A stretch of 64,000 nt of DNA from an uncultured Candidatus Saccharibacteria bacterium. Lineage in GTDB: Bacteria > Patescibacteriota > Minisyncoccia > Phycocordibacterales > SBAW01. The notes under the pieces were generated by a model, which saw nothing but the letters and a program-made list of their open reading frames with translations, was not told the DNA's origin and searched no databases. Location: positions 475,099 through 539,098 of the forward strand of contig CAZYUH010000001.1 of assembly GCA_964650645.1 (NCBI GenBank). Direction: 5' to 3'. The position numbers were made by a program, and so were the translations under genes. This document shows, piece after piece, positions 1 to 40,576 of the stretch. Numbering within the stretch: position 1 is the stretch's first letter; each line of letters opens with the position of its first letter.

Positions 1-407
1 AGCTCGCTTAACAAATGCGGGGGAATCGCCGGCTCGCCGCTCCTGGGGTCGCTGTTGTATTTTTCATGTTGTATGCCAAGCTCATTGAGCGGATAAAACC
101 ACCAAAGGTTCCTGGCTTCCTCGATAAACTCCGGGTTGACATCGAAATTATCGCGATAGCCCTTCTCTGCGAGAAAGCACATCTCGCTCGCGGGTATGCG
201 CCAATCGCAATCGGTTATCGCTTTGGCTATCTTTTCAAGGTTCTCTTCGAAACGCGGGCGGGTGAGGAACGCGAGCACCTCCTCATTTCCTCCTCGCTCC
301 CGTATTTTCTTAATGAAGAGTTCGAGCAATCTCATGCCCATACCCATGCCGCGCACCATCGTTCCAACTTCCGTTCTTCTGGCCATTATGGCCTCCTGTG
401 CGCCCAT
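1..407 (-). CDS. hypothetical protein, N-terminal part (runs off the window start); possible acetyl-CoA-binding-like motif RGMGMG
   Basis: Reverse-strand ATG at 407..405; open to position 1; protein-like composition; not in the ORF track because it has no stop. The opposite-strand ORF 15..467 is low-complexity (HAHTHAAHH) and judged spurious. Confidence 0.3.
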   Translation of the reverse strand, partial: MGAQEAIMARRTEVGTMVRGMGMGMRLLELFIKKIRERGGNEEVLAFLTRPRFEENLEKIAKAITDCDWRIPASEMCFLAEKGYRDNFDVNPEFIEEARNLWWFYPLNELGIQHEKYNSDPRSGEPAIPPHLLSE

Positions 408-469
408 CCTGCCTCCCCAATGGAGACGCTCGGGTCTGTTGAAATTATACTATTTTTAAAAAATTAGTC

Positions 470-493: not shown

Positions 494-1180
494 CTAGCGA
501 GCACCCGTCGTCGTCGCCTGCGTGGAGGAAGCGAGGGTCTCGAGCTCTGGGACGAGTTCCTGCACTTCGGCAAGGTTCTTGAAGCCGTAGACCGGCGCGT
601 GGCCGCCGACAACCATGGAGGGCAGCCTGCTGCCGTCCACCTTGTTGAGGTGTATGAGGGTCTTGAGCGCGCCGAGGTCGAGGTTGTAATCGAAGGAGTA
701 TACGCGAAGCGTGGGGTAGGTCTGGCGCAGGTAGGTGAGCACGTCGCCCTGGCGGCCGCAGTCCGTGCAGTCGCCCTCGTTGGAGTAGAAATAGAGTATG
801 AAGACGGGCTTCACCTTGGGGCACTTCTCGCTTATCTGGCGCATGAGGAGGTAGTCCTTCATCTGCAGGAGCGAGTACTGCTTCTTTATCTGTATCACTT
901 CCGCGTTGTCGATGCCCAGGTTCTGCTCGGCGACGCTGAGCCGGCCGGCGAGGTTGTTGAGCTCCTCGGAGAGGACCGGGTTCTGCGATATGGCGGCGCA
1001 GTCGAGGTTACCCAAAAGCTCGAACTGCGTCTCGGTCGAGAGGATGTCCACGGAAATCGCCTCCTGCGTGGTGCGGATGTCGGCCAGGCGCCTGGCGTCG
1101 AGCCTGGTCGTCAGGTAGAAAGCCGTGCCGAATATGGCGACCGTGATGATGAATGATAGGAGGTATTTTTGCCAGGCCAT
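494..1180 (-). CDS. membrane-anchored thioredoxin-fold protein (CxxC = CTDC)
   Basis: Internal ATG at 1180 gives MAWQKYLLSFIITVAIFGTAFYL (N-terminal TM); motif SNEGDCTDCG; 16 nt downstream of the GT2 gene, so same operon. Confidence 0.55.
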   Translation of the reverse strand: MAWQKYLLSFIITVAIFGTAFYLTTRLDARRLADIRTTQEAISVDILSTETQFELLGNLDCAAISQNPVLSEELNNLAGRLSVAEQNLGIDNAEVIQIKKQYSLLQMKDYLLMRQISEKCPKVKPVFILYFYSNEGDCTDCGRQGDVLTYLRQTYPTLRVYSFDYNLDLGALKTLIHLNKVDGSRLPSMVVGGHAPVYGFKNLAEVQELVPELETLASSTQATTTGAR

Positions 1181-1196
1181 AGCGTTTAAGGGCGTA

Positions 1197-2432
1197 TTAG
1201 GTGAGCCACCCGCGCTCGCGGGACAGCGCCGCGTCCCACGCGGCGCGCGCGAGCCACATCGGCGCCAAAAGCCCGAAGAGGAAGAAATAGGAGACAAGGT
1301 GCTTGGCGTCGAGCCGGCTGCCGGCGATGCGCTGGCCCAGAAGGACCGCGACGAGGGTCATGAGGAACATGACGACCATCAGGAAGAGCATCATGCCCGT
1401 GTTGAGGTAGAACCAGTCGAACTGGAAGTGCGGCAGGCGGGGCGGTATGCCGGTCAGGTAGTAGTTCGCCGCCTTTTCAATGCCGGCGCTCGCGAGATGG
1501 TAGGCGAGGTAGCACGCGCTGTAGAGGCCCATCGCGAAGGCCGCGAGCCCGAAGGGCAATACCAGCATCCCGAAGTTCCCGTACTTGCGGTTGAAGTACA
1601 TGTGCGCGTAGTCGCGCGAGTTCTCGAGGAATCCGCGCGACCAGCGGGTGCGCTGGCGTATGAGCGCCGGCACCGTGGTGGGCACGTTGGTGTGCACGAG
1701 CGCCGTGTGCACGTTCACCAGCTTGAGCCCGTGCATGTGCATGCGGAAGGCCATCTCCATGTCTTCCGTATGGTGCGCGCGGCGGAAGGGACCCACGATA
1801 TCAAAGAGCGCGCGCCGGTAGATGGAGAACGGCCCGGGCAGGACCGATATCGCGTTCATGTTGTCGAACATCTTCTTGTAGAAGATGCCGAAGGTGTACT
1901 CGACCGCCTGCATGAGCTCGAGCATGGTGCGCGGCTGGTTGACCTTCATGGAAGGGGCGGCGGCGTACGCCTCCGGGTCGGCCTCGAACGCCTTTACCAT
2001 CTCTATGAGGGCGTCCTTCTCCACGAACGAGTCGGCGTCGAGGCAGCCCACGAGCTCCGAGTCGGTGTGCGCGAGCCCGAAGTTGAGCGCCGAGAACTTG
2101 CTGCCCTCGTTCTCCTTCCGGTAGAGCTTCACCTGCGGGTTGCTCGCGAACTCCTGCGCGGCCTCCCACGTGTTGTCGGTCGAGCCGTCGTCGATGATGA
2201 CGATGGAAAGCTTGTCCTTGGGGTAGTCAAGCTGGAGGAGTGAATGGATGGTGGGGGCGAGCGTCGCGCCCTTGTTCCAGCAGGGCACCAATACGGCCAC
2301 GGTGGGGTAGCGCTTGGGGAGGCCGGGGGACTTCACCTCGGGGCGCTTCTCGAAGAAGGAAATGAGCAGAAACACCTCGAAGAAGAGGGCGAAAAAGAGG
2401 GCTGCATATACGCCGAGGGCGCCCGCATCCAT
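1197..2432 (-). CDS. family-2 glycosyltransferase (processive, NodC/cellulose-synthase-like) with C-terminal TM helices
   Basis: DxD-type motif LDADS, QRTRWSRG (QxxRW) motif, multiple C-terminal hydrophobic segments; start placed at ATG 2432 (MDAGALGVYAALFF); track start 2462 is a GTG. Confidence 0.8.
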   Translation of the reverse strand: MDAGALGVYAALFFALFFEVFLLISFFEKRPEVKSPGLPKRYPTVAVLVPCWNKGATLAPTIHSLLQLDYPKDKLSIVIIDDGSTDNTWEAAQEFASNPQVKLYRKENEGSKFSALNFGLAHTDSELVGCLDADSFVEKDALIEMVKAFEADPEAYAAAPSMKVNQPRTMLELMQAVEYTFGIFYKKMFDNMNAISVLPGPFSIYRRALFDIVGPFRRAHHTEDMEMAFRMHMHGLKLVNVHTALVHTNVPTTVPALIRQRTRWSRGFLENSRDYAHMYFNRKYGNFGMLVLPFGLAAFAMGLYSACYLAYHLASAGIEKAANYYLTGIPPRLPHFQFDWFYLNTGMMLFLMVVMFLMTLVAVLLGQRIAGSRLDAKHLVSYFFLFGLLAPMWLARAAWDAALSRERGWLT

Positions 2433-5080: not shown

Positions 5081-5536
5081 TTACGAACAGGGGCGGTACA
5101 TGCTCCTCAGGCTCTCTCCCTTAAGCCATAGCAGTTTGCCGCCCGGAGGCGGAAGCCCGCCGCGGGCGTATATCCAGCGCCGCACGGGCGCGGGATACAG
5201 GTCAAGCAGGAAGGCTGTCGCCTCGGCGTCGGGAACGGAGACCGCTGCGCCGTACTGGGCCCGGCCTTCCCTCCATGCCTGGTGGAAGCCGAGCCTCGCC
5301 CGGGGCGTGACGCATATGCGATCCTGCGGCATGATGCCCAGGACGATGGTGCATGCCGATTTGCATGAGCCGTCTATCATCACCGCCTTGCCCGAGTTTC
5401 GAACGGCCTCGTATTTCTCAACGTAGTCGCCTATGCGCCCTCCGTCGTCACCGGCTATTACCGTTACGAAGCGGGCCTCGGCCGCCAGTGGAAATGAACC
5501 AAGCAGGCACAGCGCGAGCGCGAGCCTCTGCAGCAT
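5081..5536 (-). CDS. secreted hypothetical protein (151 aa, signal peptide MLQRLALALCLLGSFPLAAEA)
   Basis: Internal ATG at 5536 preceded by AGGAG (spacing about 7); signal peptide followed by a Cys-containing soluble domain. The upstream part of the listed 409-aa ORF is Arg-rich junk. Confidence 0.5.
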   Translation of the reverse strand: MLQRLALALCLLGSFPLAAEARFVTVIAGDDGGRIGDYVEKYEAVRNSGKAVMIDGSCKSACTIVLGIMPQDRICVTPRARLGFHQAWREGRAQYGAAVSVPDAEATAFLLDLYPAPVRRWIYARGGLPPPGGKLLWLKGESLRSMYRPCS

Positions 5537-5608
5537 GTCTCTACTCCTGTTATGAAGGGTCCGATCCTGCAAAAACCATAGCATATGCCCGCGTTCGCGC
5601 AAAAAAGA

Positions 5609-5633
5609 ATCCCCGGGCCTTTCGGTCCGGGGA
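5609..5633. terminator. intrinsic terminator hairpin, near-copy of the 5042 hairpin (CCCCGGGCC-tttc-GGTCCGGGG)
   Basis: GC stem with one G:T wobble, downstream of the minus gene 5653..6231. Confidence 0.5.
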
Positions 5634-14185: not shown

Positions 14186-15394
14186 CTAGCTGCGGGTTTT
14201 TATCTCGTCCGCGAGCCTCGTGACGATGTCCTGTATGGGAAACGCGCCCAGCTTGCCCTCGCGGCCTTCAAGGGTGACGGTGCCGGAGGCGACCTCGGCA
14301 TCGCCTATGACCATGAGGTAGGGGACCTTCGCGGTTTTCGCGTTGCGTATCTTCTTGCCGAGGCTCTCGCTTGAATAGTCGGCTTCGGCGCGGATGCCGG
14401 CCTCGCGCAGGCGCTCGAGCGTGTCCTGCGCGAACGCGGCGTGCGCCTCGCCTATGGGGATGACGATGGCCTGCACCGGCGAGAGCCATGTGGGAAGGAT
14501 GCCGTCGAGGTGTTCGAGCAGCACCGCGATGCACCGCTCGAGGGAGCCGGTGATGGCCGAGTGGATCATGACGATGCGCTCCTTTTTTCCTTCTTCATTG
14601 ATGCACGCGAGGTCAAAGCGCTCGGGCTGGTTGAGGTCGAGCTGGATGGTGGCGACCTGCCACTCGCGGCCCGCGGCGTTCTTGGCCATGAAGTCGAGCT
14701 TGGGGCCGTAGAGCGCCGCCTCGCCCGGGCCCTCGAAGAAGTCCGCGCCGCGCTCCACCGCTATCTCGCGCAGGGCGCCTTCGGCGCTGTCCCACACCGC
14801 GGGCGTGCCTATGTATTTTTCCGGCGCCGACGGATCACGGAACGAGAGGCGCACGCGGAGCGTGAACCCGAACTGGCGGTAGAAGCGGTCCACGATGTCC
14901 CAGATCTTCAGGAACTCGTCCTTTATCTGCGACGTGCGGCAGAATACGTGGCTGTCGTCCTGCGTGATGGACAGCACGCGCGTGAGGCCGCCGAGCTCGC
15001 CGGACTGCTCGTCGCGGTAGACCATGGTGGTCTCGGCGTAGCGCTGGGGCATCTCGCGGTAGGAGTGCGGCCGGCGCGCGAATATCTGCGTGTGGTGCGG
15101 GCAGTTCATGGGCTTGAGCGCGTACTCCTTTCCCTCGCGCGAGGTGATGCGGAAGAGGTCGTCGGAGAACTTGTCCCAATGGCCGCTCGTCTCGTACAGG
15201 CTCTTTTTGGTGATGTGGGGGATGGTGACGCGGTCGTAGCCGTGCGCGTTGCGCAGTTCCCAGACGAAGCGGTCTATTTCCTCGCGCACCACGGTGCCCT
15301 TGGGGGTCCACAGCGGGAGCCCCGAGCCCACCAGGTCGCTGAACGTAAAAAGGTCGAGCTCGCGCCCGATGGTCCTGTGATCGCGTTCTTCCAT
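14186..15394 (-). CDS. thrS: threonine--tRNA ligase, catalytic + anticodon-binding domains only (402 aa; no TGS/editing domain)
   Basis: RDHRTIGRELDLF, class II motifs (FRITSREGKEYALKPMNCPHH, FCR...GELGGLTRV); C-terminal anticodon-binding fold. Confidence 0.9.
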   Translation of the reverse strand: MEERDHRTIGRELDLFTFSDLVGSGLPLWTPKGTVVREEIDRFVWELRNAHGYDRVTIPHITKKSLYETSGHWDKFSDDLFRITSREGKEYALKPMNCPHHTQIFARRPHSYREMPQRYAETTMVYRDEQSGELGGLTRVLSITQDDSHVFCRTSQIKDEFLKIWDIVDRFYRQFGFTLRVRLSFRDPSAPEKYIGTPAVWDSAEGALREIAVERGADFFEGPGEAALYGPKLDFMAKNAAGREWQVATIQLDLNQPERFDLACINEEGKKERIVMIHSAITGSLERCIAVLLEHLDGILPTWLSPVQAIVIPIGEAHAAFAQDTLERLREAGIRAEADYSSESLGKKIRNAKTAKVPYLMVIGDAEVASGTVTLEGREGKLGAFPIQDIVTRLADEIKTRS

Positions 15395-15469: not shown

Positions 15470-15682
15470 TTACGCCAGCGCCGCTTCTTCTTCCTGCCCG
15501 CGCTTCGCGCGCCCGCAATGGGTGCGCCATGCCGCGAACAGCTCGTCGCGCTGCTTTTCCGTGCGGACGAATCCCATGCGCGCCGGCAGGCAGCCGGGAC
15601 ACACCGTTTCTTCGTAGGCGCCGCCGAACAGGTACTTCTTGGCGCATTCTCCGCATTCCCGATACTCCAGACGCTTGCTCAT
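15470..15682 (-). CDS. small zinc-ribbon protein (70 aa; CGEC...CPGC)
   Basis: ATG 15682 preceded by GGGAGGAAGCG; flanked by hairpin terminators at 15436-15463 and 15760-15790. Confidence 0.45.
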   Translation of the reverse strand: MSKRLEYRECGECAKKYLFGGAYEETVCPGCLPARMGFVRTEKQRDELFAAWRTHCGRAKRGQEEEAALA

Positions 15683-29978: not shown

Positions 29979-30255
29979 GAATAGCGAAACCAACGGGCAG
30001 GCCGCGGGGGCCATGAGTGAGTATCGAGTGGGGGTTTCGATACAACTAAAGAGGTGTGGATACTTTCACCTAAAGCTTCATAAGGAAGCAGGGGAGCCCT
30101 TTGGGCGACCCGGATTTTTCGTGTTTTGGCTGTGTGCATAAGTCAGTTGACTCCTAAGCATTTGTGCGAATAGCCATTGCCAGGAAAGAGAGAGGTGGGT
30201 GCGTCGGGCGCAGGTGCGGGTCCCTTTATCAACGTCCCTTCATCTTACAATCATC

Positions 30256-37107
<6,852 letters not shown>

Positions 37108-37127
37108 CGCGAAAAATTATAAAAAAG

Positions 37128-37158
37128 ATAAAGGCCGCGGATGGAAATCCGCGGCCTT
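37128..37158. terminator. terminator hairpin (AAGGCCGCGGAT-ggaa-ATCCGCGGCCTT)
   Basis: 12-bp stem between convergent rpoBC and the GNAT gene. Confidence 0.6.
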
Positions 37159-37163
37159 GTCCG

Positions 37164-37805
37164 TTATTCGTCACCTTCGAGCTTCCAGGCAAGGCTATGG
37201 CTTGTCTGCCCGCCGCCCGCTTCTTCCTTGCGGAAGGCGCCGGCTTCGAATCTCTTCCAAGCCTCCCGCCATTCATTTGCATGCGCCTCGAGTATGAGCT
37301 CGTCGTGGAACGCGCCGCGGCGCAGCGTGTGCTTCTTGAGCCGGGCGACGACCTTGTACCCGCACTTCTCGCTATACGCCTTGCTGCGGCCGTTGAAGGC
37401 TATGACCCTCGATTCGACCTTGCGCAGCCCCAGCTCATTGAATGCCCAGTTAAGGAGCAGCATCTTGGCATCGCTGCCGAAGCCTTTGTTGCAGTGGTCC
37501 TCGAGCATGACGGCCCCGGTTACGGCCCGGCGGTTTATCCAGTCTATCCTGTGGAGCCCCATGGTTCCGACAGGGGTCCGTTTCCCATCCTTGAGCGCTA
37601 TGACGAACACGGCGTTGTTGTCGGACGTGTTCGCCCTCTCTACCCACTCCAGTTCTTGCTTCTCGCCTATGGGCATGGCGCGTCCGAGGTATTGCCGGCT
37701 TTCAGGCTCGTTCTGGAGCCTTAGCGCGAGCGGTATGTGCGCCCGCCCGGGCACGATAAGCGAGCAGCGGGCGTTTGCATGCGTTAGGAACGGCGGCATC
37801 TGCAT
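37164..37805 (-). CDS. GNAT-family N-acetyltransferase (RimJ/RimL-like)
   Basis: NKGFGSDAKMLLLNWAFNELGLRKVESRVIAFNGRSKAYSEKCGYK; ATG 37805 with AGGAG 6 nt upstream. Confidence 0.75.
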   Translation of the reverse strand: MQMPPFLTHANARCSLIVPGRAHIPLALRLQNEPESRQYLGRAMPIGEKQELEWVERANTSDNNAVFVIALKDGKRTPVGTMGLHRIDWINRRAVTGAVMLEDHCNKGFGSDAKMLLLNWAFNELGLRKVESRVIAFNGRSKAYSEKCGYKVVARLKKHTLRRGAFHDELILEAHANEWREAWKRFEAGAFRKEEAGGGQTSHSLAWKLEGDE

Positions 37806-37988
37806 ATGAATCTCCTGTTGTGAAAGAACCGCGCTGGTACGAAAAGCTCCGGCTTTCGTCCAGCCGGAGTCCTTCAATACTGAGCGTGAGGAGATGTATT
37901 AAATGACTGCGCTTGGACGAATTGCACGGGCAAGGGCCCCCGAGATGGAGGTCCATGCATGCTTATTCATCTGTGCGCAGCGATTCTG

Positions 37989-38017
37989 CATATTCCACAT
38001 ATATCCTGCAAATGCAT
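37989..38017 (-). promoter_or_regulatory. minus-strand promoter TTGACA-17-TATATG with an about 175-nt structured leader before the GNAT gene
   Basis: + strand catata (37989-37994) and tgtcaa (38012-38017); leader contains a GC hairpin + TTTTCG (37836-37870). Confidence 0.45.
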
Positions 38018-38044
38018 TCCTGTCAATATAAAGAAAAAAGCCGC

Positions 38045-38068
38045 CTCCGTAAGGAGTGCGGCCTTTTC
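38045..38068 (-). terminator. terminator (GCCGC-loop-GCGGC, T-tract on minus strand)
   Basis: Downstream of the 31-aa peptide gene. Confidence 0.5.
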
Positions 38069-38084
38069 GATGCGCCCCGGCTTT

Positions 38085-38180
38085 CTAGAAGAAGTCGAAG
38101 CTGACCAGTGTGGAGCAGAAAAGGATAGCGCCGAAGAAGAAAGGAGAGACGAAGACGGTGAGCGCGACGGTCTTGAACAT
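38085..38180 (-). CDS. 31-aa hydrophobic peptide (MFKTVALTVFVSPFFFGAILFCSTLVSFDFF)
   Basis: ATG 38180 with GGAGG 7 nt upstream; consensus promoter 38211-38239; terminator 38045-38068; below the track's length cut-off. Confidence 0.45.
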   Translation of the reverse strand: MFKTVALTVFVSPFFFGAILFCSTLVSFDFF

Positions 38181-38210
38181 CGAAACCTCCTGAATGAACT
38201 GTATAGATTA

Positions 38211-38239
38211 ATTATACACCCAAATAGTATACTTGTCAA
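38211..38239 (-). promoter_or_regulatory. consensus minus-strand promoter TTGACA-17-TATAAT
   Basis: + strand attata 38211-38216 and tgtcaa 38234-38239. Confidence 0.65.
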
Positions 38240-38319
38240 GTATGTTGGGTGTGGGGTAAAAAAGCTTGCAGGACACAAGAAAAGCGCCGCTCCCGAAGGA
38301 TGCGGCGCTTGTGTATGGG

Positions 38320-38547
38320 TTATGGGTGTTTTATTAAGGCTATCACTGTCCCAAAACAAGCTATACCTATTAGAACCAGAATTACATACTCCACTAGTTT
38401 CCTCCTGGTATTGGCGGGCGTCTCCCGTTCCTTCTCGTCGGGCTCTTCAGCCAGGAGCCTTTTACAGAAAGGACACTGTGCTTTGTCTTTTCCTCCTCTT
38501 GCTCCTTTTATGAGCAGTCCGCAATGGGGGCATGCAACGGTCTTCAT
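38320..38547 (-). CDS. small zinc-ribbon (CPHC...CPFC) protein with C-terminal TM helix (75 aa)
   Basis: ATG overlaps the stop of the upstream gene (ATGA at 38544-38547); terminator hairpin 38280-38306 downstream. Confidence 0.55.
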   Translation of the reverse strand: MKTVACPHCGLLIKGARGGKDKAQCPFCKRLLAEEPDEKERETPANTRRKLVEYVILVLIGIACFGTVIALIKHP

Positions 38548-38732
38548 TCTTCTCTCCGTCCTGTGCCGTCATTCTCCGGGCGCTTCTCTATGAGGTGGAA
38601 TATTATGCCGGCGCCCGCTAAGATGCCGGCAACCTCTCCGCCGGATCCCAACAGGGAGCGCCCTGCGAGCGCAAGCAGCGCCATTAGGGCGAACATGAGG
38701 ATGCTCACCTTCCTGTAATGCTTGGCGGGCAT
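38544..38732 (-). CDS. small membrane protein (62 aa)
   Basis: ATG 38732 preceded by GAGGAGGAATAGGAG, which is made up of the EEE* codons of the upstream gene (translational coupling). Confidence 0.5.
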   Translation of the reverse strand: MPAKHYRKVSILMFALMALLALAGRSLLGSGGEVAGILAGAGIIFHLIEKRPENDGTGRREE

Positions 38733-38737
38733 CTCCT

Positions 38738-38849
38738 ATTCCTCCTCGTCGGGTTCGTCCATGAGCGGCTTGAGGGGCTTGCCGCAGTGCGGGCACTCGT
38801 AGTCGTCTTCATCCACTACGCCATCGCATTCATCGCAATACTCATCCAA
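38738..38849 (-). CDS. tiny acidic zinc-ribbon protein (CDEC...CPHC; 37 aa from the TTG start, 48 aa if ATG 38882)
   Basis: Promoter TTGACA-17-TATTTG (38886-38914, minus) ends 3 nt before ATG 38882. A TTG at 38849 with upstream AAAGAAAGGGA fits better as the start. Confidence 0.35.
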
Positions 38850-38932
38850 CGGGAATCCCTTTCTTTTCCAATGAGCCTGCATACACAAATACGCTTAAAT
38901 AAAGGTCATGTCAAGTGGTATACTATGGCTAC

Positions 38933-40576
38933 ATGGATACCGAGGTGCAGCAGGTGAAGGACCGCGTCAACATCGCCGAGGTGGTGGGGCAGTACGTGCA
39001 GCTGAGGCGCGCGGGGCGCAACTTCTCGGGCCGCTGCCCGTTCCACAACGAGCGCACGCCTTCCTTTATGGTGTCTCCCGAGCGCGGCACCTACATATGC
39101 TTCGGGTGCGGCGAGAAGGGCGACGTGTTCAGCTTCCTCCAGAAGATGGACGGCACCGACTTCCCGACGGTCCTCAAGCAGCTGGCAGAGAAGGCGGGCG
39201 TCACGCTCAAGCCCCGCGCGCGCGACCCGCGCGCCGCAGAGGCGCGCGAGCAGGAGAAGGAGAGGGAAGAGAGGCTCCGCGAGGCCTGCGAAGAGGCGGT
39301 GGCGTTCTATGAGGCGGAGCTTGCGAAGCGCGCCGACGTCCTGGAGTATCTGAAGGCGCGCGGCGTGACGCAAGAAAGCGCCAAGTCGTGGCGGCTGGGC
39401 TACGCGCCCGCCGCGTGGGAGGCGCTGTCGAAGCATCTCGTCGCGAAGGGGTTCGGGCACCCCGATATCGTCGAGGCGGGCTTCGCCGTGCGCTCGGAAA
39501 AGCGGCCGGGCGAGATATTCGACCGCTTCCGCGGGCGCATCATCTTCCCCATATTCGACGCGGGCGGCGCGCCCATTGCCGTGTCGGGCCGGTTCTATGA
39601 GAAGATTCCGGGGCAGTCGGACGGCGCGGAGCCCGCGAAATACGTGAATTCGCCCGAGACGGCGCTGTTCAGGAAGTCCAGGGTCCTGTACGGGTTCGAC
39701 CGCGCGCGCGCGGCTATTCGCCGCGCCGACTGCATCCTCTTAGTAGAGGGCCAGTTCGACCTCGTCATGGCCCACCAGTCGGGCCTGCCGTTCGCCGTGG
39801 CGCTCTCCGGCACGGCGCTTACGCAGGAACACCTTGCCCTTCTCGGGCGCCTTTCCAAGCGGCTCGTGCTCGCGCTCGATGCCGACGCGGCAGGCCTGCG
39901 CTCGGGGCTCAAGTCGGCGCTCATGGCCATGCAGGCGGGCTTCGACGTGAAAGTGCCCGCGTTCGCGCCCGGGAAGGATCCGGCCGACGTCGCGCGCGAC
40001 AACCCCGAGCTCCTCAAGGCGGCGGTGCGCACCTCGGCGACCGCCATAGAGTTCTTCATGGACGCCCTGCGCCCCGCGGCACGGGACGCGCGCGCGTACC
40101 AGAAGGCGGTCGAGCTCCAGGTGTTGCCGCTCGTCGCGGCCGTCGAAAGCACCATTGAGCGCGAGCATTTCATACGCATCATCGCGCAGAAGCTCAGCGT
40201 GCCTGAGGCGGCGGTCCGCGACGAAGTCGCCAAGCGGCCGAGCCTGCCCGAGGAGGATTCACCGCTTCTTCACCAGCCGGACGCACAATTGGCATCTGAT
40301 CCGCTAGGGAGCTTGAGCCCGCTCGACAGGAAGGCCGCCATGCTCGTATTCAATTTCAGCCGCGATTCCGCGGAGCGCGGGCGGCTGGACGCCCTCGTGG
40401 GCGCCGACCGCGCGGCGCGCCTGGAGGCCGACCTTGCGGAGCAGGCCGAGGCCCTGCGGTTCAGGTTCGAGGCCGAGGTGGGGGAGCATACGACGCCTGA
40501 AGCCATAGCGGCGGACATGCTCGCCGACATCGAGCGCGTGGCGGCGCGCGAGCGCATCAAGCTGAGGTTCCTGTAG
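38933..40576 (+). CDS. dnaG: DNA primase
   Basis: Zinc finger CPFHNERTPSF...CFGCG, TOPRIM (LLVEGQFDLV...DADAAG); TATACT at 38919-38924 only 8 nt before the ATG, so leaderless. Confidence 0.9.
   Translation: MDTEVQQVKDRVNIAEVVGQYVQLRRAGRNFSGRCPFHNERTPSFMVSPERGTYICFGCGEKGDVFSFLQKMDGTDFPTVLKQLAEKAGVTLKPRARDPRAAEAREQEKEREERLREACEEAVAFYEAELAKRADVLEYLKARGVTQESAKSWRLGYAPAAWEALSKHLVAKGFGHPDIVEAGFAVRSEKRPGEIFDRFRGRIIFPIFDAGGAPIAVSGRFYEKIPGQSDGAEPAKYVNSPETALFRKSRVLYGFDRARAAIRRADCILLVEGQFDLVMAHQSGLPFAVALSGTALTQEHLALLGRLSKRLVLALDADAAGLRSGLKSALMAMQAGFDVKVPAFAPGKDPADVARDNPELLKAAVRTSATAIEFFMDALRPAARDARAYQKAVELQVLPLVAAVESTIEREHFIRIIAQKLSVPEAAVRDEVAKRPSLPEEDSPLLHQPDAQLASDPLGSLSPLDRKAAMLVFNFSRDSAERGRLDALVGADRAARLEADLAEQAEALRFRFEAEVGEHTTPEAIAADMLADIERVAARERIKLRFL

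Follow-up and report, generated by a model that had tools for sequence, protein, structure and literature searches.

Probable small zinc-ribbon protein genes with optional membrane modules in a variable cassette island next to dnaG of a candidate phyla radiation bacterium

Introduction

Haloarchaea encode one-domain C(P)XCG zinc-finger micro-proteins, represented by Haloferax volcanii HVO_2753 and HVO_0758 and about 40-49 others (PMC6562870, PMC10716476, PMC11241148). These proteins are <70 amino acids (aa) long, contain two Cys knuckles, are often acidic and lack further domains; for most of them, the function is unknown or pleiotropic. Five of 14 C(P)XCG proteins were zinc-free, and AlphaFold2 is unable to decide metal binding (PMC11241148). 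The haloarchaeal class appears to be the closest known kind to the products of the locus described here, which consists of three small open reading frames (ORFs), g1, g2 and g3, located upstream of dnaG in a 64,000-nt stretch of contig CAZYUH010000001.1 (the window) from an uncultured bacterium of the candidate phyla radiation (CPR). An earlier sequence-only reading of this DNA had proposed that the three ORFs form a translationally coupled micro-operon for two zinc ribbons and two single-pass membrane proteins.

The resemblance to the haloarchaeal proteins is one of size and motif. g1 (37-48 aa) contains CDECDG and CPHCG, and g3 contains CPHCG and CPFC, as in the C(P)XCG class. g1 and the 42-aa g3 homologues (g3') of two related lineages, B and C (with CPHC and CPFC), fall within the size range of the class, and the window g3, with 75 aa and a helix, lies just outside the <70-aa limit. 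The class is, however, a descriptive one to which no sequence relationship was found, and the present proteins belong to a CPR bacterium in which one copy is fused to an anchor.

A design analogy is provided by CdpC, the zinc-finger membrane anchor of FtsZ1 in Haloferax, which combines zinc ribbons, a disordered linker and a membrane element and tethers a cytoplasmic partner to the membrane; the family is reported to be fast-evolving (bioRxiv 10.64898/2026.07.16.738847). CdpC is an archaeal protein of much greater size that relies on an amphipathic helix, and the likeness is one of design only, with no homology claimed. TcaA (NF053815) shows the same order as g3, i.e. cytoplasmic ribbon, short linker and single membrane helix, but it has a large extracellular domain, whereas g3 ends three residues after the helix and would thus be tail-anchored; the match scored 11.6 bits against a cut-off of 550.

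Four-Cys ribbons of similar size are also found in YacG, Rpo12/RpoP and Spt4. YacG is a gyrase inhibitor and Rpo12/RpoP and Spt4 are RNA polymerase subunits or factors, all of which bind a large enzyme of DNA or RNA metabolism. YacG shares an acidic tail with g1, and g1 lies among genes of DNA and RNA metabolism, but the matches are insignificant (YacG, E=0.43; Rpo12, E=0.94).

Results

The small ORFs and their coding signature

We consider it probable that g1-g3 are genuine small-protein genes in a modular, recombining island of small-ORF cassettes that occupies the interval between dnaG and a GNAT acetyltransferase gene. The three ORFs are on the minus strand, abut one another and span 38849 or 38882 (depending on the g1 start) to 38320, and the flanks consist of core genes (fused rpoB-rpoC, the GNAT gene, dnaG and rpoD). 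The features are, in window coordinates:

38736..38849, minus strand: g1, 37-aa form, with CDEC-x10-CPHC, then a PLMDE motif and an acidic tail; stop TAG 38738..38736; in-frame starts TTG 38888 (50 aa), ATG 38882 (48 aa) and TTG 38849 (37 aa)
38544..38732, minus strand: g2, 62 aa; ATG 38732, stop TGA 38546..38544
38320..38547, minus strand: g3, 75 aa; ATG 38547..38545, stop 38322..38320
38446..38547, minus strand: candidate zinc ribbon of g3, CPHC-x15-CPFC
38411..38449, minus strand: linker of g3, a copy of the g1/g2 junction by sequence comparison
38332..38397, minus strand: C-terminal hydrophobic helix of g3, residues 51-72
38741..38747, minus strand: Shine-Dalgarno sequence GAGGAGG of g2, within the last g1 codons (GAG GAG GAA), ending 8 nt before the g2 ATG
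38274..38314, minus strand: intrinsic terminator, a GC-rich hairpin with UUCG as its loop and a U-rich tract after it
38886..38914, minus strand: candidate micro-operon promoter, with -35 TTGACA (38914..38909), a 17-nt spacer and a weak -10 TATTTG (38891..38886)
38933, plus strand: ATG of dnaG, head-to-head with the micro-operon
37164..37877, minus strand: GNAT acetyltransferase gene
30199..37107, plus strand: fused rpoB-rpoC ORF, 2302 aa

The coordinates agree with the earlier description of the ORFs as abutting or overlapping, as 3 nt separate g1 from g2 and the g2 stop overlaps the g3 start in the sequence ATGA. A set of 48, 62 and 75 aa was called by independent gene callers (L020-L027), and by their layout g1-g3 are probably real, tightly packed and co-transcribed small-protein genes.

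Judged by their substitution pattern, g1-g3 evolve like coding sequence. In pooled ungapped blocks compared between the window and lineage C (L028), there was an excess of synonymous changes (synonymous differences, Sd, 38.6; non-synonymous differences, Nd, 62.4; pN/pS 0.46; binomial P=1.3e-4), and the annotated frame was free of stops. Four of the five other frames gave pN/pS values of 0.94-1.27, and the antisense frame that shares the wobble position gave 0.50, with stops. By gene, pN/pS was 0.26 for g1 against lineage C, and 0.36 and 0.63 for g2 against lineages B and C, respectively; pairwise Nei-Gojobori dN/dS was 0.19-0.35 for g1, 0.31-0.52 for g2 and 0.11-0.36 for the ribbon portion of g3. 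With the exception of g3 in lineage B (L018), no sampled lineage has a disrupted annotated frame; indels elsewhere come in multiples of three (e.g. a 15-nt indel in the g3 loop), and the eight Cys are invariant in all intact genes. The g1 proteins of lineages A and B are 92% identical, which makes g1 better conserved than DnaG (82.4%). Loss of the frames or a non-coding substitution pattern in relatives had been named as what would speak against the three genes; the outcome of that comparison favours coding.

The GC content at the third codon position (GC3) is 0.74 in g1, 0.71 in g2 and 0.45 in g3, compared with 0.89-0.93 in core genes and 0.78 in the GNAT gene; that at the second position is low in g1 and g2, and the values for the three positions of g1 are 0.71, 0.26 and 0.74. 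The double pattern CxxC-x(6-25)-CxxC occurs in only three of the 358 six-frame window ORFs of 30-100 aa, two of these being g1 and g3. The third is a 70-aa ORF at 15470..15682 on the minus strand, MSKRLEYRECGECAKKY...VCPGC..., which has no Pfam match and is situated just upstream of a class II aminoacyl-tRNA synthetase gene (14186..15394, minus strand).

The g1 protein is (MQAHWKRKGFP)LDEYCDECDGVVDEDDYECPHCGKPLKPLMDEPDEEE, where the part in parentheses is the 11-codon extension of the 48-aa form chosen by gene callers from ATG 38882. Lineage C has an ATG at the codon homologous to TTG 38849 of the window and ATC in place of the upstream ATG, and the extension has a flat GC content by codon position, without the GC3 bias of coding sequence; both observations point to TTG 38849 as the most likely start, giving a protein of 37 aa. 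The earlier description of g1 as an acidic CxxC..CxxC protein of 37-48 aa thus holds, with the shorter form favoured over the longer one. The AlphaFold2 model of g1 is a beta-hairpin ribbon with a predicted local distance difference test (pLDDT) score of about 70.

The g2 protein is MPAKHYRKVSILMFALMALLALAGRSLLGSGGEVAGILAGAGIIFHLIEKRPENDGTGRREE, with a basic N-terminus (MPAKHYRK) and a charged C-terminus. Its hydropathy profile contains two hydrophobic segments (about residues 9-24 and 33-48) split by GSGG. Because of the two peaks, the GSGG between them and the character of the two termini, g2 would be better described as a helical hairpin than as a single-pass protein, and the profile suggests that both of its ends are cytoplasmic. 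Thus, of the two single-pass membrane proteins proposed earlier, the hydrophobic segments are present in both g2 and g3, but g2 has two of them. Homologues of g2 fall into four clusters of 82-98% identity, and that of lineage C (g2') has 53 aa. Comparison of g2 with other small transmembrane (TM) ORFs situated upstream of dnaG in distantly related loci (L011, L003, L007), and with the cassette proteins of 53 and 74 aa described below, gave similarities that were not significant or were inconsistent, and homology was rejected.

Relation between g1 and g3

g1 and g3 appear to be paralogous CxxC-x10-CPxC ribbons. In lineage C, the g1 homologue (g1') and g3' match each other by BLASTP at E=2e-4 with identical Cys spacing, and both have CxxC-x10-CPxC, a hydrophobic-acidic motif and an acidic tail. 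A tblastn search with g3' found the g1 locus at E=7.5e-4, and the g1 variant P0006 ends in EEDYE, the same ending as in g3'. The zinc-ribbon motifs with four Cys that had been noted in g1 and g3 are indeed present, but they are paralogues and not two different parts.

The g3 protein of the window, MKTVACPHCGLLIKGARGGKDKAQCPFCKRLLAEEPDEKERETPANTRRKLVEYVILVLIGIACFGTVIALIKHP, departs from g3' after ...RLLAE. The DNA of its linker, gaagagcccgacgagaaggaacgggagacgcccgccaa, is identical at 32/38 nt to the sequence running from the end of g1 through its stop to the start of g2, gacgaacccgacgaggaggaataggagatgcccgccaa, a match that was reached in 0/2000 shuffles; in the linker, CGG replaces the TAG of g1 and ACG replaces the ATG of g2. 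The whole of g3 is colinear with the protein that read-through from g1 across the stop into g2 would give (alignment score 76 compared with a shuffle maximum of 49; tblastn E=4.9e-5). On the strength of the junction match, g3 of the window's lineage looks like an in-frame ribbon-tail-anchor fusion, combining a g1-type tail with a g2-type start.

The AlphaFold2 model of g3 consists of a beta-hairpin (pLDDT about 70), a low-confidence linker and a helix over residues 44-73 at pLDDT about 87-90. RRK stands directly before the hydrophobic helix and the protein ends three residues after it, which by the positive-inside rule points to a cytoplasmic ribbon with a C-terminal anchor. No DNA match for the AT-rich helix segment was found in the relatives or elsewhere in the window. 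An exact-protein look-up of g3 returned no record, and a 99% identical variant is on record.

Gene content across relatives

Five lineages were defined from contigs fetched for protein matches, and the genes are head-to-head with dnaG in all of them:

Lineage A (the window, L013-L017 and L020-L027; 99-100% identical): g1, g2 and g3 (75 aa)
Lineage B (L018; DnaG 82.4%): g1, g2 and a g3 homologue in which 1 nt is inserted at a C-run, so that a 41-aa TTG ORF remains
Lineage C (L028-L030, three assemblies): g1' of 39 aa, g2' of 53 aa and an intact g3' of 42 aa, MKTIACPHCKLTIGEDEVRCPFCHRLLAEGSEEEEFDEEDYE, with no membrane segment
Lineage D (L031-L036, six assemblies; DnaG 84.1%): one 58-aa ribbon gene only, MDTCPHCNGVIDEDDHECPHCGKEAQPLMDEP...EGDYE
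Lineage E (L044; upstream DNA identical to the window): a g1 head with an ...EEDYE tail and a g3'-type terminator, followed directly by the promoter of the next cassette

Lineages A, B and C share the gene order g1-g2-g3. The g3 of B and C is about 42 aa long and has an acidic tail but no membrane segment, which was found only in the g3 of the window's lineage. The 58-aa ribbon gene of lineage D is followed by the terminator that is found after g3' in B and C, and lineages D and E resemble products of recombination between g1 and g3'. Since g2 and g3 are absent from D and E, both appear to be dispensable. The results do not support a conserved three-part complex: the trio that was sought in relatives is not a fixed unit, as the membrane segment of g3 is lacking in B and C, and D and E have a single ribbon gene and neither g2 nor g3.

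In L018 (3441..3576), an extra T before a run of five C breaks the frame of the g3 ATG, and the 41-aa TTG ORF is without the first Cys; this homologue is either a pseudogene or an assembly error. L019, which is near-identical to lineage A, has 16 substitutions within about 85 nt of g2 (1162..1350) and is identical to the window in g1 and at the g3 5' end, a pattern that would fit a recombination mosaic or a local hypervariable stretch. Among the contigs that are 100% identical, the sole differences are 10 C-to-T changes in dnaG near a contig end (L016, around window 39579..39863), which look like damage or an assembly artefact and not strain variation. Positions 1..55 of L028, a low-coverage contig, repeat its own positions 399..453 (the g2' 3' end) and probably represent a chimeric end of the assembly.

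By DnaG, the closest genomes at species level (61-79% identity) are metagenome-assembled genomes (MAGs) of uncultured CPR/Patescibacteria labelled as Saccharibacteria, Nomurabacteria, Kaiserbacteria, Adlerbacteria and Paceibacterota. A tblastn search of g1-g3 against 12 such loci gave nothing significant, from which we conclude that the trio is absent from these species-level relatives; in several of these relatives, different small hydrophobic ORFs occupy the corresponding position. When 5.8 billion proteins were searched by word index, only one, four and two clusters came up for g3, g2 and g1, respectively. An HMMER profile search with g1, run exhaustively on 1.84 billion representatives, gave 57 matches, and the only true small relatives among these were P0007 and P0012, of which P0012 was new; together with P0006, they make up the g1 relatives. 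The 39-aa P0048 was rejected, as it adjoins a chemoreceptor gene in an unrelated context, and the remaining matches are multi-ribbon repeat proteins. Of two metagenome scans with g1 alignments, the first was empty and the second yielded only unrelated DsbA-like and other proteins sharing YECPHCG. As sampled by these searches, the island is confined to one narrow clade of Paceibacteria-like CPR bacteria.

Expression signals

The Glu codons at the end of g1 form the GAGGAGG ribosome-binding site (RBS) of g2, as had been described (38747..38741, 8 nt from the g2 ATG), and the site is conserved in lineages B and C. The join of the g2 stop and the g3 start in ATGA was likewise borne out, so that the sequence layout, with an RBS inside g1 and ATGA joining g2 and g3, is that of a translationally coupled operon. 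The overlap sites shift between lineages: ATGA is at g2/g3 in lineages A and B and at g1/g2 in C, where the g2-g3 spacing is 21 nt.

The promoter proposed to lie back-to-back with that of dnaG was upheld in part. A perfect -35 (TTGACA) is present, abuts the extended -10 of dnaG (TGgTATACT, 38916..38924, plus strand) and is identical in lineages B, C, D and E, yet it also lies within the dnaG promoter region. The -10 candidate TATTTG is poor, varies among the relatives (TACTTA, TACATA, TAAACA) and would place the transcript start at about the upstream ATG of g1, and the site was not flagged by a consensus promoter scan of the window.

The hairpin terminator that was said to bound the trio was confirmed by folding: GCGCCGCATCCTTCGGGAGCGGCG (38308..38285) followed by CTTTTCTT folds at -24.3 kcal/mol (z = -5.06), and 0/200 shuffles were as stable. 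The window has one copy of the 24-mer and lineages B and C have two, always after a small-ORF cassette. An Rfam search of 37000..39200 gave nothing near threshold.

On the opposite strand, the extended -10 of dnaG ends 8 nt before ATG 38933 and there is no Shine-Dalgarno sequence (38916..38935, plus strand), so the dnaG mRNA may be leaderless or nearly so. Gene callers extend dnaG to GTG 38915 (553 aa).

Family and structure searches

No above-threshold match was found for g1-g3 in Pfam, NCBIfam, PHROGs or PADLOC, where only sub-threshold generic ribbon matches were obtained and g2 had no family match. In Pfam, g1 scored 22.2 bits with Zn_ribbon_3 (PF13248; gathering threshold 27) and 18.5 with DZR (PF12773; 27.3), the score for Zn_Ribbon_1 (PF13240) was 16.4 against 25, and g3 reached 15.7 against 27 in the Zn_ribbon_3/DZR test; all of these are below threshold. 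The three families share a CxxC...CxxC beta-hairpin of about 23-26 residues, and g1 aligns to positions 4-26 of the 26 of Zn_ribbon_3, but the models lack the PLMDE motif and the acidic DYE tail of g1. With the Rpo12/RpoP models (NF001605/NF001606), g3' scored 21.4 bits against a cut-off of 72 (NF001606, E=1.6e-4) and g1 13.7 against 63. PHROGs gave ribbon-type matches only, at E>=1.4e-4 and nearly all of unknown function, and PADLOC gave LmuB fragments at 12.6-13.5 bits.

A Foldseek search with the g1 model gave no match at E<=0.001, the nearest shapes being RanBP2/NZF-type mini ribbons. The PDB sequence search returned a single low E-value (7e-06, a designed C2H2 zinc-finger array), with no matched stretch that passed alone. 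Several known kinds of protein were rejected. Rubredoxin needs two CxxCG/CPxCG knuckles about 29 residues apart that flank an aromatic core, compared with a spacing of 10 in g1 and g3' and 15 in the window g3, and the PDB matches to it (E=0.45-0.93) were insignificant. A zinc-binding anti-sigma factor (ZAS) was discarded, as no HxxxCxxC was seen in g1 or g3 by inspection and there was no anti-sigma Pfam match. A known anti-phage defence or phage lysis protein was also discarded, as there was no significant PADLOC or PHROGs match with an assigned function.

Other elements of the interval

A separate cassette at 38034..38239 (minus strand) consists of a perfect TTGACA-17-TATAAT promoter (38239..38211), an AGGAGG RBS, a very hydrophobic 31-aa ORF, g4 (MFKTVALTVFVSPFFFGAILFCSTLVSFDFF, 38085..38180, minus strand), and a terminator (38034..38062). 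g4 was called as a gene in L013 and L020-L027. Lineages B, C and D have homologues of 27 aa, and in L001 the region upstream of dnaG contains a similar ORF (5503..5628, minus strand). As the DnaG of L001 is only 79% identical, g4 appears to be more widely conserved than g1-g3.

Lineages B, C and D contain two further cassettes for small hydrophobic proteins (L018 3590..4345; L028 600..1365; L032 830..1600), which are absent from the window and have no Pfam match. One encodes a 53-54-aa signal/TM peptide beginning MKRMPVLLVCSA... and the other a TM protein of about 74 aa beginning VKKAYLVLSA..., and both end in the 24-nt terminator core that follows g3 in the window.

A 184-aa plus-strand ORF (37959..38513), called as a gene in four public assemblies (L014-L017), runs antisense to g3, its terminator, the g4 promoter and g4. 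As it crosses all these elements and is not conserved in L018 or L028, it is almost certainly spurious. In relatives, the Rpb2 and Rpb1 Pfam domains are also found in one product, of 2237-2283 aa, as in the fused rpoB-rpoC of the window.

Discussion

What is new here, as far as the predicted proteins tell, is an unannotated, clade-restricted family of small zinc ribbons with optional membrane modules. In the reading that we favour, the conserved core would be one acidic four-Cys ribbon with CxxC-x10-CPxC, a PLMDE or RLLAE motif and an acidic tail, in many cases with DYE as its last residues. Two paralogous copies of this core would be represented by g1 and by the N-terminal half of g3, and g2 and the C-terminal half of g3 would be accessory hydrophobic modules that are gained and lost by recombination between co-occurring strains. 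The g3 of the window's lineage would have gained an in-frame copy of the junction formed by the g1 tail, its stop and the g2 start, and then a membrane helix. Thus the trio is best seen as a set of interchangeable parts of a fast-recombining island and probably not as a fixed three-protein machine.

How the proteins work can be suggested only tentatively. The ribbon and its acidic tail may bind a cytoplasmic partner, probably a basic one, and the hydrophobic modules would optionally hold the ribbon at the membrane, leaving it soluble when no anchor is present. Since g3 joins ribbon, acidic linker, RRK and anchor, one chain would do what g1 and g2, if they interact, would do as two, and the occurrence of split (g1+g2) and fused (g3) forms suggests that the ribbon acts at the membrane if it has an anchor and as a soluble protein if not. 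A cytoplasmic zinc-ribbon adaptor with an acidic partner-binding tail and optional membrane tethering is the mechanism that we favour, with less than even confidence in the tethering.

Several points weigh against these views. The lineages compared are five closely related ones, several of the contigs have a coverage of 1.3-3.5, though in 3-6 independent assemblies, and the substitution counts are small. The micro-operon promoter is weak by consensus, g2 and g3 are lost in lineages D and E, and the g3 homologue of L018 contains a 1-nt insertion. A four-Cys C(P)XCG motif need not bind zinc; it may be without metal or take up another one (PMC11241148). The similarity between the g3 helix and the first TM segment of g2 is marginal, being reached by 28-52/1000 shuffles, and the helix may therefore have another origin, with the junction alone copied. 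The membrane half of g3 is known only as 99-100% identical copies, and both the GC3 of g3 (0.45) and the GC content of its TM segment (36% in a 63% GC window) are atypical for this genome; accordingly, the membrane extension could be young, weakly expressed or decaying.

A small membrane-associated complex for metal binding or signalling was the explanation given in the sequence-only reading. The tight packing, the RBS within the upstream gene, the ATGA overlap and the gene order preserved in lineages A, B and C would all agree with an obligate complex of three distinct subunits, kept in fixed proportions by translational coupling, but we consider it unlikely, since the membrane segment of g3 is not shared by B and C, D and E retain a ribbon gene but neither g2 nor g3, the coupling junctions vary by lineage, and g1 and g3 are paralogues. 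It is also improbable that the ORFs are chance products of a GC-rich intergenic or regulatory region upstream of dnaG, in which a DNA or RNA function and not a protein is conserved. GC-rich genomes do yield many spurious ORFs, such as the 184-aa ORF on the opposite strand that was called as a gene, the locus overlaps the dnaG promoter, and the GC3 of g3 is low; yet the synonymous excess without stops is found in the annotated frame only, the Cys codons are invariant, the indels keep to multiples of three, the GC3 of g1 and g2 is of the coding type, Rfam gave no match, and the double CxxC pattern is rare among the small ORFs of the window.

The size and layout of g2 resemble those of small membrane toxins and class II holins, and the locus is variable and patchy, as addiction modules are. 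We nevertheless think it quite unlikely that the locus is a toxin-antitoxin-like or holin-like module in which g2 damages the membrane and g1 counteracts or regulates it: there is no match to a PADLOC, PHROG, Pfam or NCBIfam family, the flanks (rpoBC, GNAT, dnaG and rpoD) include neither a lysin nor phage genes, D and E retain the putative antitoxin g1 although g2 is lacking, and a fused ribbon-anchor such as g3 does not suit a toxin-antitoxin pair. A transcription or replication accessory factor, with the acidic ribbon binding RNA polymerase, a sigma factor or primase in the manner of Rpo12, Spt4 or YacG, would account for the constant head-to-head position with dnaG-rpoD near the fused rpoBC and for the weak sub-threshold matches to RpoP (NF001606), Spt4 and YacG. 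These matches are, however, far below their cut-offs (21.4 compared with 72 bits for RpoP) and typical of any CPxC ribbon, the fold search gave nothing at E<=0.001, and relatives that are equally close and share the rpoBC-dnaG arrangement lack the gene, which makes this explanation very unlikely.

Annotation of CPR genomes systematically overlooks small proteins, and no known function is attached to about half of the genes of these bacteria. As the family is clade-restricted and partly dispensable and there is no functional lead, the practical impact of the present finding is limited to annotation and the evolution of small proteins. In these respects, the locus shows, over five lineages, unannotated ORFs of 37-75 aa under purifying selection, and it illustrates how small genes may arise and change through duplication, fusion in frame across a stop and a start, and loss of cassettes. 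The split and fused forms point to a pairing of a zinc-ribbon micro-protein with a membrane peptide. We regard it as a long shot that, in these reduced-genome episymbionts, the cassette-shuffling locus exchanges ribbon heads, acidic tails, anchors and a common terminator among co-occurring strains and so supplies an adaptor in soluble, split or fused form that titrates or localises primase, a sigma factor or the fused beta-beta' subunit; if this were true, g1+g2 and g3 would represent a natural Rosetta-stone pair for a new bacterial membrane-tethering micro-protein system.

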